Source of the DNA: Escherichia coli
Lineage (GTDB): Bacteria > Pseudomonadota > Gammaproteobacteria > Enterobacterales > Enterobacteriaceae
NCBI RefSeq assembly: GCF_003991155.1
Contig: NZ_CP031293.1
Length of the DNA stretch: 64,000 nucleotides
Reading direction: 5' to 3' (one strand)
Part shown: piece by piece, positions 15,430-22,649 of the stretch
Layout: every line of letters starts with the position of its first letter
Numbering within the stretch: position 1 is the first letter of the stretch
The notes under the pieces: model-generated
What the model was told of the DNA's origin: nothing
Databases searched by the model: none
What the model saw: the letters and a program-made list of their open reading frames with translations, nothing else
Translations under genes and position numbers: made by a program

Positions 15430-16914
15430 ATGCGAAAAATAATTACTCATTTCAAAGTTGTTTTAACGTTACTTCTACCAGTAACCGTATCTGCCCAGCA
15501 GATACAGTGGCAATCCTGTATGGCCAGTCAATTCAACCACTGGTTTGGTGAGGAAAAACCGTCTCCTGACTTACTATGTGGTTATTTGTCTGTTCCATTA
15601 AAATATACAGACACAGGCGGAGATGCTTCTTATGAAAAAAAATCACAAGTCAAACTAGCGTTGACAAAATTGCCGGCAAAAAGCAAGCATAAAGGAAGTA
15701 TCCTGATAATAAGTGGTGGTCCCGGGTTACCAGGCATAAATCCTTATATTAACTTTGACTGGCCAGTCACAAATCTTCGTGAGTCATGGGATATTATTGG
15801 ATTTGATCCTCGAGGCGTCGGACAGTCCACTCCGACAATAAACTGCCGGCAATCAGATACAGAGACTCAGGAAAACATAACCGAAAAGCAACAAGTATTA
15901 AATAAAATTAATGCCTGTATCCATAATACCGGAGCCGAAGTCATTCGCCATATCGGCTCTAACGAGGCTGTATACGATATTGATCGTATTAGGCAAGCCT
16001 TGGGGGATAAACAACTGACAGCCGTGGCGTATTCGTATGGAACTCAAATTGCAGCCTTATATGCAGAACGTTTTCCCTACAACGTAAGATCTATCGTTCT
16101 TGATGGAGTCGTCGATATCGATGACCTGGAGGACAACTTCACATGGCAACTCAAACAGGCACAGAGTTATCAGGAAACGTTTGATCGCTTTGCATCCTGG
16201 TGTGCGCGTACAAAAAGTTGCCCGCTTTCTTCAGACAGAGATAAGGCAATAACTCAGTTCCATGAGCTATTATCAAAATTACATCACAAACCTTTATTAG
16301 ACAGTAAGGGAGAAAATATATCTTCAGATGAACTCATATCATTAACAACAGACCTTCTGCTATGGCGTTCATCATGGCCAACCCTTGCAACTGCCATACG
16401 CCAGTTCTCTCAGGGGATTGTCAGTAATGAAATTGAAACTGCGCTCAGTGCTCCGATAGCCTCAGAAGAGTCAAGCGATGCTTCGGGGGTAATCCTCTGT
16501 GTAGATCAGGGGGATGAGCAATTAACACCAGAAGAGCGAAAATCCCGAAAAGACGCTCTTGCGAATGCCTTCCCGGCTATTAACTTTGACAATGGACGTT
16601 CCGATTCACCTGATTTTTGTGAATTATGGCCAATACATAGCGACCTGAACAAAACTCGCCTGAAAAATACTGTTCTGCCCTCTGGTTTACTGTTTGTAGC
16701 ACACAAATACGACCCAACAACGCCCTGGATTAATGCCCGTAAGATGGCAGAGAAATTTTCCAGCCCGTTACTAACAATAAATGGTGATGGGCATACATTA
16801 GCTCTCACCGGAGTTAATTTATGTGTAGATAAAGCAGTTGTACATCACCTGATCACTCCACAAAAAATAGAAAATATATACTGCCCAGGAAATTCTGAAG
16901 CAGAAATACAATAA
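15430..16914 (+). CDS. Secreted alpha/beta-hydrolase, S33 (tripeptidyl aminopeptidase-like) family
   Basis: 494-aa ORF with signal peptide MRKIITHFKVVLTLLLPVTVSA; nucleophile elbow AYSYGTQ (GxSxG). Confidence 0.7.
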   Translation: MRKIITHFKVVLTLLLPVTVSAQQIQWQSCMASQFNHWFGEEKPSPDLLCGYLSVPLKYTDTGGDASYEKKSQVKLALTKLPAKSKHKGSILIISGGPGLPGINPYINFDWPVTNLRESWDIIGFDPRGVGQSTPTINCRQSDTETQENITEKQQVLNKINACIHNTGAEVIRHIGSNEAVYDIDRIRQALGDKQLTAVAYSYGTQIAALYAERFPYNVRSIVLDGVVDIDDLEDNFTWQLKQAQSYQETFDRFASWCARTKSCPLSSDRDKAITQFHELLSKLHHKPLLDSKGENISSDELISLTTDLLLWRSSWPTLATAIRQFSQGIVSNEIETALSAPIASEESSDASGVILCVDQGDEQLTPEERKSRKDALANAFPAINFDNGRSDSPDFCELWPIHSDLNKTRLKNTVLPSGLLFVAHKYDPTTPWINARKMAEKFSSPLLTINGDGHTLALTGVNLCVDKAVVHHLITPQKIENIYCPGNSEAEIQ

Positions 16915-16926
16915 TTTCAAAATATT

Positions 16927-16976
16927 CCGCTATTTGCTCCCAATGCAAAACATATATTGCATTGGGAGCATATTCA
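16927..16976 (+). terminator. Rho-independent terminator after the hydrolase gene
   Basis: Inverted repeat GCTCCCAATGCAA...TTGCATTGGGAGC followed by a T-rich tract. Confidence 0.5.
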
Positions 16977-17180
16977 TATTTTTGTTATTCTTGTATGAAA
17001 TCGTCTCATGTACACGGTCCTTTTTTCGCCGAAAACTGATATTACTTTAATCAAAAGTTGACGTGCCAGATTCGAAGTAAATTTATAAAATATCAAATCA
17101 ATATACATTTTGCACCTTCGAGATAGTAATTGCTGTTACTGTAACATGAGTTACAAACAGCTTCATACCCAGAGCTACTG

Positions 17181-17400
17181 ATGTATCAACACGATTCAAC
17201 AATACCCGATATTTATTCCATGCCTCCAGCAACGATCTTTCTTCCTCCGTTGCGATTTCCCAGCATCCTGCAGTGGCGCAATATACTCACTGAATTCCTG
17301 GATGTAGAACTGTGTGGTGACGGTCTTCCAGCCATTCGGCTCCTGCTGTATCGAAGCATACCAGGCTATTTCAATATCGCTATGCTGCGGCAGCATTTAA
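17181..17400 (-). pseudogene. tfa: Tail fibre assembly (Tfa) 3' remnant, frameshifted
   Basis: Minus-strand frames read ...EYIAPLQDA and [27 protein letters not shown] in different frames; no N-terminus. Confidence 0.65.
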
Positions 17401-17452
17401 CCCCTTGTAATTCATCGCCATAATTGATTTAATTCACAAATAAAACTATAAC

Positions 17453-18121
17453 ATGGTGAAATTAATGAAAAAAAACACAGATGATGGGGCTAAAATTTAC
17501 ACACCACTTACCCTAAAGCTTTATGACTGGTGGGTTTTGGGAGTATCAAATCGGCTTGCATGGGGATGTCCTACAAAGGAACACCTTCTTCCACACTTTC
17601 TGGAACATTTAGGTAACAACCATCTGGATATTGGTGTTGGAACTGGGTTTTACCTTACTCACGTACCTGAGAGCAGTCTGATATCTTTAATGGATTTGAA
17701 CGAAGCTAGCCTGAACGCGGCATCTACAAGGGCTGGGGAATCAAAAATTAAACATAAAATTAGCCATGATGTTTTTGAACCTTATCCCGCGGCGTTACAT
17801 GGTCAATTTGATTCCATTTCCATGTTTTACCTTCTTCACTGCCTGCCTGGAAATATATCTACAAAAAGCTGTGTAATACGCAATGCGGCGCAGGCCTTAA
17901 CTGACGATGGAACTCTATACGGAGCCACAATTCTTGGCGATGGAGTTGTGCACAATAGCTTCGGTCAAAAACTGATGCGCATTTACAATCAGAAAGGCAT
18001 CTTTTCAAACACAAAAGATTCCGAAGAAGGCTTAACACATATACTCTCAGAGCATTTCGAGAATGTTAAAACCAAGGTTCAAGGTACTGTAGTAATGTTT
18101 TCCGCTTCAGGGAAAAAATAG
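17453..18121 (+). CDS. ybcY: Class I SAM-dependent methyltransferase (YbcY-like)
   Basis: 222-aa ORF with motif I LDIGVGTGFY; sits between tfa remnants as ybcY does in DLP12. Confidence 0.7.
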   Translation: MVKLMKKNTDDGAKIYTPLTLKLYDWWVLGVSNRLAWGCPTKEHLLPHFLEHLGNNHLDIGVGTGFYLTHVPESSLISLMDLNEASLNAASTRAGESKIKHKISHDVFEPYPAALHGQFDSISMFYLLHCLPGNISTKSCVIRNAAQALTDDGTLYGATILGDGVVHNSFGQKLMRIYNQKGIFSNTKDSEEGLTHILSEHFENVKTKVQGTVVMFSASGKK

Positions 18122-18222
18122 CATCCAACCGCAGCACGTTCTTGCTTAAGACGTGCTGCGGCATAATCCCAATGATTACTCCCTGACAGGGTTCGTAGGC
18201 CACTCAATATCAGGTGCAGTTG

Positions 18223-18300
18223 ATGTATCAACACGGTTCAGCAACACCCGATACTTCTTCCAGGCTTCCAGCAACGAGGTTTCTTCCTCCGTTGCATATA
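18223..18300 (-). pseudogene. tfa: Tail fibre assembly (Tfa) C-terminal remnant, second copy
   Basis: Minus-strand frame reads [25 protein letters not shown]; direct-repeat homolog of 17181-17260. Confidence 0.6.
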
Positions 18301-18313
18301 CAGCTCACTTTTT

Positions 18314-18607
18314 TCACCCACGATTAACCAACAGCCAGACCAGCAGACACGCCACCACCGGCACAGCAAAATCCATCAGACTTGCTACATCCCACGCGCG
18401 CGGATCAAAACCGCCCCACCACGGCATATTCATTCGCTTGCCATGCCCGAACATTTCAATCCAGCGATATTCTGCCTGGGTGTGTTCACGCGCAATGAAG
18501 AACGTACAACCGGCTATCGCCCCGTAAACCCAGTTTCCGGTAAAAAGACCAATCAGTACCTGCGCAGCCACAGCACAAAGCGCATGAAGAAAAGGTGTTA
18601 TATCCAT
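18314..18607 (-). CDS. Small hydrophobic protein of unknown function
   Basis: 97-aa ORF MDITPFLHALCAVAAQVLIGLF... with predicted TM helices; same strand as tail genes. Confidence 0.35.
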   Translation of the reverse strand: MDITPFLHALCAVAAQVLIGLFTGNWVYGAIAGCTFFIAREHTQAEYRWIEMFGHGKRMNMPWWGGFDPRAWDVASLMDFAVPVVACLLVWLLVNRG

Positions 18608-18617
18608 TACTCCTCCT

Positions 18618-19322
18618 TTATCTAATATCGCTTCGGGAAGTTAATAACAACTTTAATTCTGACTCAAGTTCATCAACTCTTTCAGTCAGTTTCTGGATAT
18701 GGTGAATCAGTGGAACAACCAGACGTTCGTACATTACACCTTCGGCAACAAGGCCATTGCTGGAAATAGCTTCAGGAGCATCATCTTCGTTAGCTGGTCG
18801 CCAGTGTACAAACTGAGGAGCAATTTCTCCTACTTCCTCGGCAATCAATCCGTAGAATCCCCAGTCACGCCTGTCATTTTCGCATTGCGACCTGTACCAC
18901 ACAGGGCGCATCCTGAAAATGAGATCGGCGTGCTCTGAATCTATTGTCTCTACTGAATGTTTATAGCGGATAGACGATGTTGACCGCAGCACAGACGAAA
19001 TTGCAGGGTCAGGATTAAGATAAAGGTTTGCCGCCGCTGTAGTCGTGGCCAAATTCCATAAATAAAACGCTTCACGACCTGTCAGTGGATAAAAATCTCC
19101 GCCATAACGACCACTTTCCAGATCGTTCACTTCCACTTTGTTTTTCAGCTTATTATCAACTTCAGTTTTTGTGTATCTGGAGCTGATATCCTGCTTTGCA
19201 CTGGTCATCTCAGTCTGAAGCGTTGATACTTTTCTGCTAATTGATGAAATATCTTCCTTAGCTTTACTGACATCTCCCTTTAGCTTGGTGATATCTCCTG
19301 GAATTACTGTCGATGTAGCCAT
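18618..19322 (-). CDS. Tail-fibre-like protein with coiled coil and C-terminal S74-type intramolecular chaperone domain
   Basis: 234-aa ORF; C-terminal pattern RPVWYR...GFYGLIAEEVGEIAPQFV...LVVPLIHHIQKL resembles S74 chaperone domains. Confidence 0.55.
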   Translation of the reverse strand: MATSTVIPGDITKLKGDVSKAKEDISSISRKVSTLQTEMTSAKQDISSRYTKTEVDNKLKNKVEVNDLESGRYGGDFYPLTGREAFYLWNLATTTAAANLYLNPDPAISSVLRSTSSIRYKHSVETIDSEHADLIFRMRPVWYRSQCENDRRDWGFYGLIAEEVGEIAPQFVHWRPANEDDAPEAISSNGLVAEGVMYERLVVPLIHHIQKLTERVDELESELKLLLTSRSDIR

Positions 19323-19331
19323 TTTTCTGCC

Positions 19332-19613
19332 TCACATCCAGCCACGAAGTTGATGCTCAACAACAACCGCGTATTTATCGAATATTGACGATTTTTTTGC
19401 ATCATTAATGATGCGCACGTTTACAAAATATCCATCTTCCTTAACACATACCGGTTCGCCATCTTCAGTCAGCTCTCCGGTTTCTTTGTACACGTTACCT
19501 ATCACGTCAATAAGAATATCATCCTGCATCGACTCGTCATCATAATAACCAGCACTCTCCATAAAGGTCGAAAAGTCGGCCCTGTCGGCAAATTTGAGTG
19601 TTAAATCTTTCAT
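19332..19613 (-). CDS. Hypothetical small phage protein
   Basis: 93-aa ORF directly downstream of stf with overlapping stop/start. Confidence 0.4.
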   Translation of the reverse strand: MKDLTLKFADRADFSTFMESAGYYDDESMQDDILIDVIGNVYKETGELTEDGEPVCVKEDGYFVNVRIINDAKKSSIFDKYAVVVEHQLRGWM

Positions 19614-21991
19614 TAGATTGACTCCCCCACCTGAGCATCAGTCAATGCCTTGTGCCATATTCTGAAATTCCTGACATGACCAAATAAATGACGTAACCCG
19701 GCTGTAGTCTGGCCTCCAATACGGATAATTGCGGTGTTCTGAATATAGGACCATGTGGTTTTTGTTTCGCTGGATATACGCCCGTTACTTACTGAGCACG
19801 TAGACTGATCTGACTTTACACGCATCCCCATAACCATTTTTTCAAGCAATGCGTTTTCGTTTACCCGTCTGTTAGCTCCTCCAATATCGCAATAAGGAAA
19901 TCCGTCGTAATCTGTTGAATGACCGAAGCCAAGAATAATAGCCGCTCCGGTTTGATGACCGCCGGTATCAAAAACACGCGGTGCTGCATTTGGCGTTTTA
20001 TACCAGTTCTTATGTACCTCACAAAGAACCGTAAAAGGAAGATTATAAAGGTTATTCTTGATTGGGACTGTCACCATATCGCTTGCGCGGGTCGCTGCCG
20101 TCGTTTCTGATATAATAAAAGATGATGCGCAAGGGCCATTTTCAACCTGAGGGGTGGACAGGAAAATATAATCTCCCGATTCAACGACACCACCTTCTTT
20201 TGGTGCGTATTGTATTGCCGAGGTTATGCAGGACTCGTCAATTGCCTGAATCGTTGCCTCTGCAAAAATCCAGCCCGTAACCTCATCCTTGTTAACTCGA
20301 GCAGTGAGCCTGTCGGCAGCTACACCGGTGATTTCAACCGATAAAGACCGCGTATTAACAATGGCATATCCAAGATTAGATGAAGCGCTGCCATCGAAGG
20401 CTTCAAACCTGATCCTTAACCGGAGTTCCAAATCCGTTTTAAATCTGCACGATGTCGTCACACACTTATTATCGCCTGATACATCGACAGCCCCGGTTAC
20501 TGTAACTGACGCCATGTTAACAGGAGAGGTTTTCCCAATCAGAGAATCGTTACAGACAAATTTTCCATAAGTAAAACCAAAACTATCCGTCCCGGTTTCG
20601 GGCACATCCATATTTACCGACTTGCCCCAACTGGCAGGGGTTTCCGAATTGAGCATGTAGTTCGTTCTCTGACCCTCAATAAGCAGGCCATCACGTTCAA
20701 ATCGTGGCTCGTCAATGGCAGCCTCTGTCAGCACACCAGATTTATTAATATAGGTTGCTTTCGATGCGCGTTTAAACTTTACAACCTTATCGCCAGGCAT
20801 CGTTATTTCATCATCACCAATAACAATCTTTTTATATGATGGCGAAAACCCCGTAATCATATCCAGTGAATCGTTAAACGGTATCCACACATCAGGCAGT
20901 GGCTGTAAGACATATTTATACGGCTCTGCTGCCTGACTTGCATACTCTCTGGCTGCGTCTTCACTTGCTTTTGCAGCGGTCTGGCTTGCAGCGGATGCTT
21001 TCGCCGAGTTCGCCGCTGCAGTCTCGCTTGTCTTTGCATTGGTTTCACTGGTTTTTGCTGCTTTTTGACTGTTGGCTGATGCAGTGGCAGAAGCAGCCGC
21101 CGCACTTGCAGAACCAGCTGCGGCACTCTCGCTTTGGGCTGCTGCATCCTGACTGTTTTTCGCCGCAGTTTCGCTGGCTTTAGCATTCGTTTCGCTGGTC
21201 TTCGCTGCCGTCTGGCTGGACTTTGCGTTGGTTTCGCTCGTCTTCGCTGCTTTCTGACTGTTAGCCGCAGCAGTTGCTGATCCAGCTGCTGAAGTCGCAG
21301 AACCGGCTGCTGCGCTCTCGCTTTCAGCTGCTGCAGCCTGGCTGTTTTTCGCCGCAGTTTCACTGGCTTTAGCATTCGTTTCGCTGGTCTTCGCTGCCGT
21401 CTGGCTTGACTTTGCGTTGGTTTCGCTCGTCTTTGCTGCTGTCTCGCTATTTTTCGCGTTGGTTTCTGATTTTTTGGCTGCTGTCGCGGAATTTGCCGAT
21501 GCAGTCTGTGAGGTCGCTGCCGCCTGTGCGCTGTTAGCTGCATTCGTTTCTGAGGTTTTCGCCGCGTTCTTCGATGATGCCGCTGCAGTTTCGGATTTCT
21601 TTGCCGCCGCTGCGCTCTGAGAGGCGGCTTCGGCGTTGCGTGCCACTTCTTCCACCATTGCCTCAAAACGACGCAATGCCTCCGGCATGACATCATCTTC
21701 CGTCATGGCACCGAGAAAATCATTCAGCGTACCTGGTCTGGAGCCTTCATAGACGGTAATGGTCCCAGCATGTGAAGGCGGAAAACCTTCAACCAGCAGG
21801 GTGACGCTGTACTGGCCATACTCAACATCCATGCTGTAACGTCCGGCTTCATCCGGATTTTCAGAAGCCACCGTGTTCACCAGTACCGTGGTGCTGTTAC
21901 GCTTTGCCTTCAGTTGAATAGTGCAGTTCTGTATTGGTTTTCCCGCACCATCTTTCAGCACACCTGAGATTTTTACTGCTGCCATATCCAC
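19613..21991 (-). CDS. stf: Side tail fibre protein Stf: lambda/Rac-type N-terminus, Ser/Thr/Ala repeat array, divergent C-terminal domain
   Basis: 792-aa ORF ...AAVKISGVLKDGAGKPIQNCTIQLKAKRNSTTV...; repeated KTSETNAKxSxTAAK units. Confidence 0.85.
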   Translation of the reverse strand: MDMAAVKISGVLKDGAGKPIQNCTIQLKAKRNSTTVLVNTVASENPDEAGRYSMDVEYGQYSVTLLVEGFPPSHAGTITVYEGSRPGTLNDFLGAMTEDDVMPEALRRFEAMVEEVARNAEAASQSAAAAKKSETAAASSKNAAKTSETNAANSAQAAATSQTASANSATAAKKSETNAKNSETAAKTSETNAKSSQTAAKTSETNAKASETAAKNSQAAAAESESAAAGSATSAAGSATAAANSQKAAKTSETNAKSSQTAAKTSETNAKASETAAKNSQDAAAQSESAAAGSASAAAASATASANSQKAAKTSETNAKTSETAAANSAKASAASQTAAKASEDAAREYASQAAEPYKYVLQPLPDVWIPFNDSLDMITGFSPSYKKIVIGDDEITMPGDKVVKFKRASKATYINKSGVLTEAAIDEPRFERDGLLIEGQRTNYMLNSETPASWGKSVNMDVPETGTDSFGFTYGKFVCNDSLIGKTSPVNMASVTVTGAVDVSGDNKCVTTSCRFKTDLELRLRIRFEAFDGSASSNLGYAIVNTRSLSVEITGVAADRLTARVNKDEVTGWIFAEATIQAIDESCITSAIQYAPKEGGVVESGDYIFLSTPQVENGPCASSFIISETTAATRASDMVTVPIKNNLYNLPFTVLCEVHKNWYKTPNAAPRVFDTGGHQTGAAIILGFGHSTDYDGFPYCDIGGANRRVNENALLEKMVMGMRVKSDQSTCSVSNGRISSETKTTWSYIQNTAIIRIGGQTTAGLRHLFGHVRNFRIWHKALTDAQVGESI

Positions 21992-22049: not shown

Positions 22050-22649
22050 TCAGAATTTATAACCGACACCCACGATGAAACCGTCAGTGCGCCAGTCGCC
22101 ACTGCCGGAGCCTTCATAAGCAATATCAATGGCCACGGATTCGGTCGGGTTAAACTGCACGCCAGCTCCCCACGCCAGAGACGTGTTGCTGTGGCGATCG
22201 TCATCACTTCCGGTCAGCACATCGTGCGTTTTCCCCTTGTTGTCAGTTACGCGGAGATAATCCCCGGAGAACGTCGAAACACGGCTGTAAGCCACACCTG
22301 CCATCGCATAAGCACTGAACCATTCATTCACGCGTACAGATGGCCCCGCCATCATGCTGAACCAGCGGTTACGCACTGAATCTTCATGCCAGCGGGTATC
22401 GCTGTAATGCGTTTTTTGCTCATCTTTGGCATTGGCATAACTGAATGACGTCACCAGCCCCAGCGTGTCCGTAAATTCATAACGGTATTTCACGTTAATG
22501 CCCTTCAGGTCATCACTGCCTGGCATATCAGTATGGGTCTGAAGATACCCGGCGCTTAGTGTGGACTGATGCTCTGCTGCGCTCGCTGGCGTACCAGCGG
22601 CAACCAGCCAGACTACTGCGGACAGAATAACAGCACATAATTTACGCAT
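22050..22649 (-). CDS. lom: Lom outer-membrane protein (Ail/Lom family)
   Basis: Start MRKLCAVILSAVVWLVAAGTPASA; C-terminus ...DGFIVGVGYKF. Confidence 0.9.
   Translation of the reverse strand: MRKLCAVILSAVVWLVAAGTPASAAEHQSTLSAGYLQTHTDMPGSDDLKGINVKYRYEFTDTLGLVTSFSYANAKDEQKTHYSDTRWHEDSVRNRWFSMMAGPSVRVNEWFSAYAMAGVAYSRVSTFSGDYLRVTDNKGKTHDVLTGSDDDRHSNTSLAWGAGVQFNPTESVAIDIAYEGSGSGDWRTDGFIVGVGYKF

Follow-up and report, generated by a model that had tools for sequence, protein, structure and literature searches.

In lambdoid phages, the late genes are transcribed by Q-modified polymerase, and the Q-modified late complex ignores ordinary terminators. A classical moron carries its own factor-independent terminator. 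The t'J terminators reportedly go back to Luk and Szybalski, and the moron terminators of lambdoid phages are said to have been treated by Juhala et al. 2000 (cited in PMC4104026). Rho-dependent transcripts end at stable stem-loops without U-tracts, with C enriched over G just downstream, and these stem-loops protect the RNA from PNPase and RNase II (Dar and Sorek 2018, PMC6061677). Overlapping bidirectional terminators of convergent E. coli genes are hairpins that pause polymerase from both sides and are not intrinsic-terminator-like (Ju et al. 2019; 10.1101/2022.10.23.513370); this class was reported to be Rho-independent. In Shigella flexneri, CssrB was seen on northern blots as an RNA of ~180 nt, and a predicted rho-independent terminator, not mapping, defined its 3' end (Peng et al. 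2011, PMC3071730). The literature searched for a lambda late-operon terminator downstream of tfa gave no usable description, that on ybcY/tfaX contained nothing on the hairpin described here, and a paper on EHEC prophage sRNAs was set aside, as its subject, the PR' moron site, is another locus.

The hairpin lies in a stretch of 64,000 nucleotides of E. coli DNA (the window, meaning the whole stretch that was analyzed), which is 100% identical to E. coli 2016C-3878 and belongs to the ompT/envY/nfrA side of the DLP12 prophage site. Its sequence, CCGCAGCACGT-TCTTGCTTAAG-ACGTGCTGCGG, spans window positions 18129-18161 and contains an 11-bp inverted repeat, CCGCAGCACGT-N11-ACGTGCTGCGG, with no mismatch. 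The preliminary description had placed this perfect repeat at 18149-18181; the repeat is real and its coordinates were shifted by exactly +20 nt. It had also located the repeat between a methyltransferase gene and a tfa remnant, and this agrees with the reading frames listed here.

17453-18121, plus strand: ybcY-like class I SAM-dependent methyltransferase, 222 aa (Pfam Methyltransf_12/23/25/11; RefSeq annotation of the 100% identical genome)
18113-18118, minus strand: displaced U6 run, 10 nt past the stem base, complement of the A6 of the methyltransferase's terminal Lys codons
18122-18128, no strand assigned: 7-nt linker CATCCAA (TTGGATG on the minus strand), also found in hairpin copies without the methyltransferase
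18129-18139 and 18151-18161: arms of the stem-loop, 11 perfect pairs, with an 11-nt loop at 18140-18150 that holds 3 further pairs
18176-18274, minus strand: C-terminal remnant of tfa, 32 codons (Pfam Caudo_TAP, E=5e-14, profile positions 103-130 of 131)
18260-18457, plus strand: C-rich, G-poor stretch, C/G 2.4-3.1, candidate Rho utilisation region downstream of the hairpin
18314-18607, minus strand: 97-aa ORF, distal late-operon gene
18618-19322, minus strand: Peptidase_S74 tail-fibre protein, distal late-operon gene
19332-19613, minus strand: 93-aa ORF, distal late-operon gene
19613-21991, minus strand: stf-like tail fibre, 792 aa, distal late-operon gene

The convergent stop codons are 54 nt apart and the hairpin lies inside that gap, 7 nt beyond the methyltransferase stop TAG (18119-18121) and, on the minus strand, 14 nt past the stop of the tfa remnant (18176-18178). 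The remnant is the final reading frame of the minus-strand late operon. The large minus-strand ORFs, from ~41.5 kb (terminase) via J, lom, and the tail-fibre genes to 18.3 kb, form a single block ending at the hairpin. The sequenced phage 2G7b has the same layout and gene order, hairpin included, with int, ompT, an alpha/beta hydrolase, and the methyltransferase on one strand, converging on the tail-fibre genes. Since the late operon meets a convergent gene at the hairpin in both the window and 2G7b, the hairpin marks the late-operon end and not a boundary between two cargo blocks; of the earlier proposal that two cargo blocks join here, the module junction stands, but one of its sides is the end of the late tail-fibre operon. 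A promoter-like site lies at 17397-17424, upstream of the methyltransferase. In K-12, the counterparts of the methyltransferase and the tfa remnant are the pseudogenes known as ybcY and tfaD/tfaX.

The hairpin is an ordinary element of well-described kinds. With a probability of roughly 60%, it is a shared transcript-end stem-loop of two convergent units that holds back 3' exonucleases and pauses polymerase, Rho being the factor that frees polymerase on the methyltransferase strand. It would close the late operon, from terminase through the tfa remnant, on the minus strand, and on the plus strand it would cap the methyltransferase mRNA, whose gene is ybcY-like cargo and has a promoter-like site of its own. 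That RNA 3' ends in this prophage are set or protected by the hairpin is our inference.

The preliminary description had called the hairpin strong. The predicted dG of the RNA is -21.9 kcal/mol on both strands, and none of 200 shuffled sequences was as stable. As a repeat taken alone, it is mildly unusual. Perfect inverted repeats of at least 11 bp with a spacer of 3-20 were found at 3 loci in the 64-kb window against 0.24 expected from dinucleotide shuffles, and at least one such repeat occurred in 18% of the shuffled windows. The hairpin is therefore judged real because of its conservation and not by the statistics of a single window. Only one copy is present in the 64 kb, according to a pattern search allowing up to 3 mismatches and to a covariance model of the hairpin family, the latter built on a first alignment with a misplaced bulge gap. 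Processing by RNase III would be unlikely for a stem of 14 pairs.

A GC-rich stem of 5-15 pairs with a short loop is typical of canonical terminators, and the 11+3 pairs of the hairpin fall within this range. The bases past the stem are CAUAAUCC on the plus strand and UUGGAUGC on the minus strand, with T at 2 and 3 of the first 8 positions, respectively, which on either strand is below the at least ~5 U in the 8 nt right after the stem that make a canonical U-tract. A T6 run lies 10 nt downstream on the minus strand. A consensus terminator scan of 16800-19500 did not call the hairpin, its sole call being 16935-16970. That no T-tract adjoins the stem on either strand had been recognized from the beginning; without an adjacent U-tract, the hairpin is not a typical intrinsic terminator, as the preliminary description had also held, and it probably does not release RNA polymerase alone.

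The relatives differ in this respect. At one locus (L161), the hairpin is flanked by AAAAAGAAAAA, an A-tract, and by TTTATGC, between tfa and a convergent gene of 257 aa, and judged by sequence it is a textbook bidirectional terminator. In O157:H7 (L003) and MY1-8 (L005), TTTAATTTTT or TTTTTC comes after the methyltransferase and hairpin. Canonical T-tracts thus occur in some relatives, and the family is therefore a transcript-end element whose U-tracts vary with the flanking module.

On the plus strand, the locus resembles the class of Dar and Sorek. A stable stem-loop follows soon after the stop codon, it has neither a U-rich tail nor an upstream A-tract, and C exceeds G downstream, with C/G = 1.95 for 18162-18400 and reaching 3.1 in windows of 78 nt, compared to 0.96 in the methyltransferase ORF. 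In the methyltransferase sense, the RNA downstream of the hairpin would be untranslated. In the K-12 orthologue, a Rho termination region was reported at 582001 on the minus strand, in the ybcY sense, with a Rho score of 3.15 and P=9.6e-6 (Adams et al. 2021, PMC7815308). Reads upstream and downstream on the ybcY strand numbered 78 and 17 without bicyclomycin and 452 and 310 with it (PMC7815308). With bicyclomycin, coverage downstream thus rises from 22% to 69% of that upstream on the methyltransferase strand, in a comparison made in 800-nt windows and hence of low resolution, so most termination there is Rho-dependent. This bicyclomycin-sensitive region lies ~110 nt past the orthologous hairpin, which was placed at ~582112-582144 by a constant offset from AG100 and not by direct MG1655 alignment. 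The K-12 ybcY is a frameshifted pseudogene, which by itself invites Rho.

Two features set the locus apart from this class. The window hairpin serves two convergent units, and no 3' end is listed at the K-12 orthologue: the curated Term-seq table (PMC7815308) has none within ~15 nt of either stem base, in a cryptic DLP12 prophage that is poorly expressed there. The read-through upon Rho inhibition is a result for the K-12 orthologue. In the methyltransferase direction, polymerase would most likely read through the hairpin, and Rho would release it 100-300 nt further on, in the C-rich untranslated stretch, after which 3'-to-5' exonucleases may trim the RNA back to the hairpin, fixing and protecting its 3' end.

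With the bidirectional terminators of Ju et al. and 10.1101/2022.10.23.513370, the locus shares its location, a palindrome in a short convergent gap, and the ability to form a hairpin in both directions. Unlike that class, the K-12 data for the hairpin orthologue indicate Rho dependence on the methyltransferase strand. The collision model proposed for the class needs simultaneous expression, which is unlikely in a lysogen with its late operon silent. In the late-operon direction, the hairpin may likewise pause polymerase and block exonucleases, or it may terminate weakly.

On the minus strand, the hairpin is base-for-base identical to the consensus 3' hairpin of Rfam CssrB (RF02799). The match scored 32.6 bits against a gathering score of 76, and the terminal hairpin alone aligned to the 180-nt model, so that the locus is not a member of the family; the Rfam scan at the hairpin gave sub-threshold matches only. 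The 130-nt body of CssrB comes from ipaH-upstream DNA, which is absent in the window. An E. coli locus with a CssrB-type left flank leads from ipaH-upstream DNA straight to the hairpin and then to TTGGATG and the same methyltransferase. This CssrB-type locus and the window have one and the same 3' flank, and the minus-strand context in which Shigella apparently makes a discrete RNA end is therefore also that of the window. In some strains, as in E. coli CFSAN029787 (L211, 2200-2560), DNA preceding a frameshifted ipaH type III effector gene runs straight into the hairpin and methyltransferase, which is the setting of CssrB in Shigella. A promoter-like site, TTGATT-N17-TACTAT, lies ~170 nt upstream of the hairpin at this locus and would fit the ~180-nt northern band.

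Like a moron, the methyltransferase is cargo inserted beside tail-fibre genes, preceded by a promoter-like site and followed by a hairpin. It differs in that the hairpin belongs to the tfa module, while the methyltransferase module ends at its own stop codon.

A homologous stem-loop is found in phage lambda. Positions 22518-22608 of lambda match the hairpin and the tfa 3' end (blastn, 79.3% over 89 nt, E=7e-11, ~15 lambda-type records), and a stem-loop at 22573-22606, CCGCAGAAACGTT-N9-AACGTTCTGCGG or in full CCGCAGAAACGTT-GTATGAAAT-AACGTTCTGCGG, lies 15 nt past the tfa stop, between tfa and the convergent ea47. Both lambda records examined carry no annotation of it. The two stem-loops are homologous, they share the CCGCAG/CTGCGG outer stem 13-15 nt past the tfa stop, and both are found where the late operon converges with leftward accessory genes (ea47 in lambda). 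In the lambda version, one A is bulged, A-U stands in place of the window's C-G pair, the loop differs, and the tail is somewhat richer in U (UUAGUUAGUAUAUU). The palindrome is, on this homology, inherited from a site just past the lambda tail-fibre assembly gene tfa.

A search for the palindrome elsewhere, which the preliminary description had suggested, showed that 2711 of the 5426 complete E. coli genomes contain the exact 47-nt core, the median being 1 and the maximum 4 copies per genome. All copies whose surroundings were examined lay in a prophage or prophage-remnant region. With few copies, in prophage contexts only at the loci examined, the palindrome is therefore no dispersed REP-like repeat; a dispersed extragenic palindrome (REP/BIME) would be present in many copies, and the median of 1 per genome and the single copy in the window led to its rejection. 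Preservation as far as phage lambda also contradicts the idea, raised at the outset, of a chance occurrence without conservation.

The position after tfa was surveyed in 80 viral contigs fetched via the Tfa protein, so that the sampling was unbiased toward the hairpin, and counts were based on the 67 contigs with at least 70 nt after the tfa stop. The hairpin family was present 13-15 nt past the stop in 50/67 tfa homologues, in 25 of which the exact window hairpin was followed by the convergent methyltransferase. An unrelated stable hairpin occupied the same spot in nine of the 67 loci (e.g., CTGCAGGATATTAT...ATAATATTCTGCAG and AAAGCCCGC...GCGGGCTT), and a hairpin after the tfa stop was absent in eight. 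The swap-in of nonhomologous hairpins is the strongest argument for what would be a structural requirement at the RNA level. A scan of viral contigs with the pattern GGAGTAATC-N(8-20)-CCGCAG returned mostly chance matches and about a dozen true family members.

Across 20 distinct hairpin variants, 96% of cells were paired; the MAFFT alignment of the variants had put the bulge gap wrongly, and pairs were counted on a second alignment with N placeholders. Covariation consisted of a single double change, C-G to A-U (lambda type), with a broken intermediate in one variant, and is weak because the hairpin copies are close relatives. Transitions that leave G-U pairs favored the tfa-sense strand by 4 to 2, too few for the selected strand to be decided from them. 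Most relatives carry a bulged A in one arm, and the window copy has lost this bulge, leaving a perfect stem. The K-12 hairpin has one C-to-T change in an arm, and one further copy (L190) also carries a mismatch.

The flanks of the hairpin are exchanged between relatives. Homology breaks at 18161 or 18167 in O157:H7, MY1-8, and phages Turner, Kati, and PhiR68_2, in which unrelated DNA comes after the methyltransferase and hairpin; at 18122 in strain B1 and phages PhiR49_2 and SPF_0923, which have the hairpin and tfa but no methyltransferase; and at 18127 in lambda. On the methyltransferase side, TTGGATG is continued by GTGAACTTT or by CTATTTTTT, and because TTGGATG is common to copies without the gene, the methyltransferase module ends exactly at its TAG (18121/18122). 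Opposite the methyltransferase flank stands either the tfa flank or one of three unrelated A-rich flanks, and the tfa flank pairs with at least five right-hand flanks. O157:H7 and MY1-8 share only the methyltransferase-proximal half of the hairpin, so the joint there lies inside the loop. Since unrelated flanking modules abut the stem base, the hairpin is also a mosaic joint, and new gene combinations join at its base or in its loop because it is the sole short sequence kept between unrelated modules. We read these joints as a consequence of every module keeping an end signal, with the short shared homology possibly helping.

The same breaks at the stem bases or 7 nt off (18161, 18167, 18122, and 18127), the free reassortment of left and right flank types, and the joint inside the loop in O157:H7 and MY1-8 would also be expected of a DNA-level role, in which the hairpin is a short linker for lambdoid module exchange by homologous recombination and any RNA role is secondary. 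This is rather improbable, as 33 bases are very short as a homologous target, selection for an end signal on every module would give the same pattern, and the unrelated hairpins after other tfa genes point to a structural and not a sequence requirement. Of the recombination site proposed earlier, the part that survives is the mosaic joint of exchanged flanking modules; a dedicated recombinase site, such as an invertase crossover or an attC-like hairpin, is hardly credible. The module junction and a Pin-type recombinase gene ~1 kb away in MY1-8 would suit such a site, but no partner for inversion or excision was found in the 64 kb, no recombinase gene is among the annotated neighbors in the identical genome 2016C-3878, copies are typically one per genome, and the hairpin follows tfa in lambda, which has no invertase. 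An operator-like site for a dimeric DNA-binding protein, the protein-binding palindrome of the preliminary description, is very improbable. The perfect dyad symmetry of the window copy would be in its favor, but the bulge in one arm of most family members destroys duplex symmetry, the spacer and loops vary, the one clear double change keeps complementarity and not a half-site, and nonhomologous hairpins substitute at the same position; moreover, the one window copy sits between two stop codons and not near a promoter. Among the three roles originally proposed, the RNA element is the one that the evidence favors.

At the RNA level, it is unlikely that the hairpin, its poor U-tract notwithstanding, functions as an intrinsic (Rho-independent) terminator on one strand or both. 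In favor of this reading are the strong, GC-rich stem (dG -21.9), the canonical T-tracts of close relatives, and the minus strand, which begins U-U after the stem and on which an extended weak lower stem would end at U6. The same hairpin and minus-strand flank were predicted to be rho-independent for Shigella CssrB, with a discrete ~180-nt RNA observed. However, U makes up only 2/8 (plus) and 3/8 (minus) of the adjoining positions, and the scan that called 16935-16970 passed over the hairpin. In K-12, the bicyclomycin response (22% to 69%) and the Term-seq table, with no 3' end at the hairpin, argue against it, and the published data, of low resolution, give no Rho-insensitive 3' ends at a U-tract. 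It is similarly improbable, on a par with the linker role, that the hairpin is an inherited relic without present function in this prophage. The tfa gene that once preceded it is now reduced to 32 codons, a chance 11-bp repeat arises in 18% of shuffled windows, and a mismatch is tolerated in the K-12 and L190 copies; yet the window stem is perfect and free of its relatives' usual bulge, the identical 33 nt are kept in half of complete E. coli genomes, and the late operon, which looks intact, still ends with the hairpin, in the same layout as in phage 2G7b. A slim chance is left to the hairpin having been preserved from lambda to half of the E. coli genomes, at the meeting point of late and leftward transcription in the loci examined, as a specific stop or end-definition signal for the Q-modified late complex, which could act, for example, as a programmed pause and a collision point with converging transcription, or, in a variant, forming with the tfa 3' end a 3'-derived lysogen sRNA of the CssrB/IS009 type.

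As a shared transcript-end stem-loop, the hairpin accounts in annotation for a strong hairpin without a U-tract and for the short tfa fragment retained before it. In phage genomics, it is a very common and concrete case of a transcript-end hairpin doubling as a tail-fibre/cargo mosaic joint, and the cargo seen at the joint includes the ybcY-like methyltransferase, ipaH-adjacent DNA, a dinI-like gene, and others. Where the lambda late operon ends, it is conserved and carries no annotation, and it also offers a handle there on how Q-modified transcription ends. The current understanding of terminators is unchanged by it.

A 45-codon ORF with a GTG start (18066-18203, minus strand) runs across the hairpin, antisense to the methyltransferase 3' end. 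It is labeled "hypothetical protein" by RefSeq, and its K-12 counterpart "nucleocapsid protein". The ORF was rejected as a coding explanation of the hairpin, as it has no Pfam or NCBIfam match, and its annotation, called over the hairpin, is probably spurious.

Two C-terminal remnants of tfa, in direct orientation, lie on either side of the methyltransferase (17098-17232 and 18176-18274, both on the minus strand), and they contain a repeat of 75 nt with 88% identity (17179-17253 and 18221-18295). The upstream remnant has neither the hairpin nor the last ~45 nt of tfa. Both remnant regions match Rfam IS009 (RF02111), with 79.9 and 72.1 bits, below the threshold of 117. Between the upstream remnant and the methyltransferase, RefSeq annotates a fragment of a DinI-family gene at ~17298-17378 on the plus strand; in phage PhiR49_2 and also in L211, the corresponding convergent position is taken by intact dinI-like genes.

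Two other perfect inverted repeats were noted in the window. The one called by the terminator scan at 16935-16970 on the plus strand has 14 bp, TGCTCCCAATGCAA/TTGCATTGGGAGCA, with an 8-nt loop followed by TATTCATATT, and lies 21 nt past the stop of a 494-aa alpha/beta hydrolase; Rfam microRNA-type matches on this palindrome were dismissed as chance. The other, of 12 bp (TTCTGCGTCTGG...) with an 18-nt spacer, is at 2299-2340, within a 407-aa minus-strand ORF (1347-2570). In the late operon, the 792-aa side-tail-fibre-like protein (19613-21991, minus strand) contains a long low-complexity run of near repeats (KTSETNAKSSQTAAKTSETNAKASETAAKNSQ...), and in the identical genome the stf-like gene is annotated by RefSeq as several fragments.
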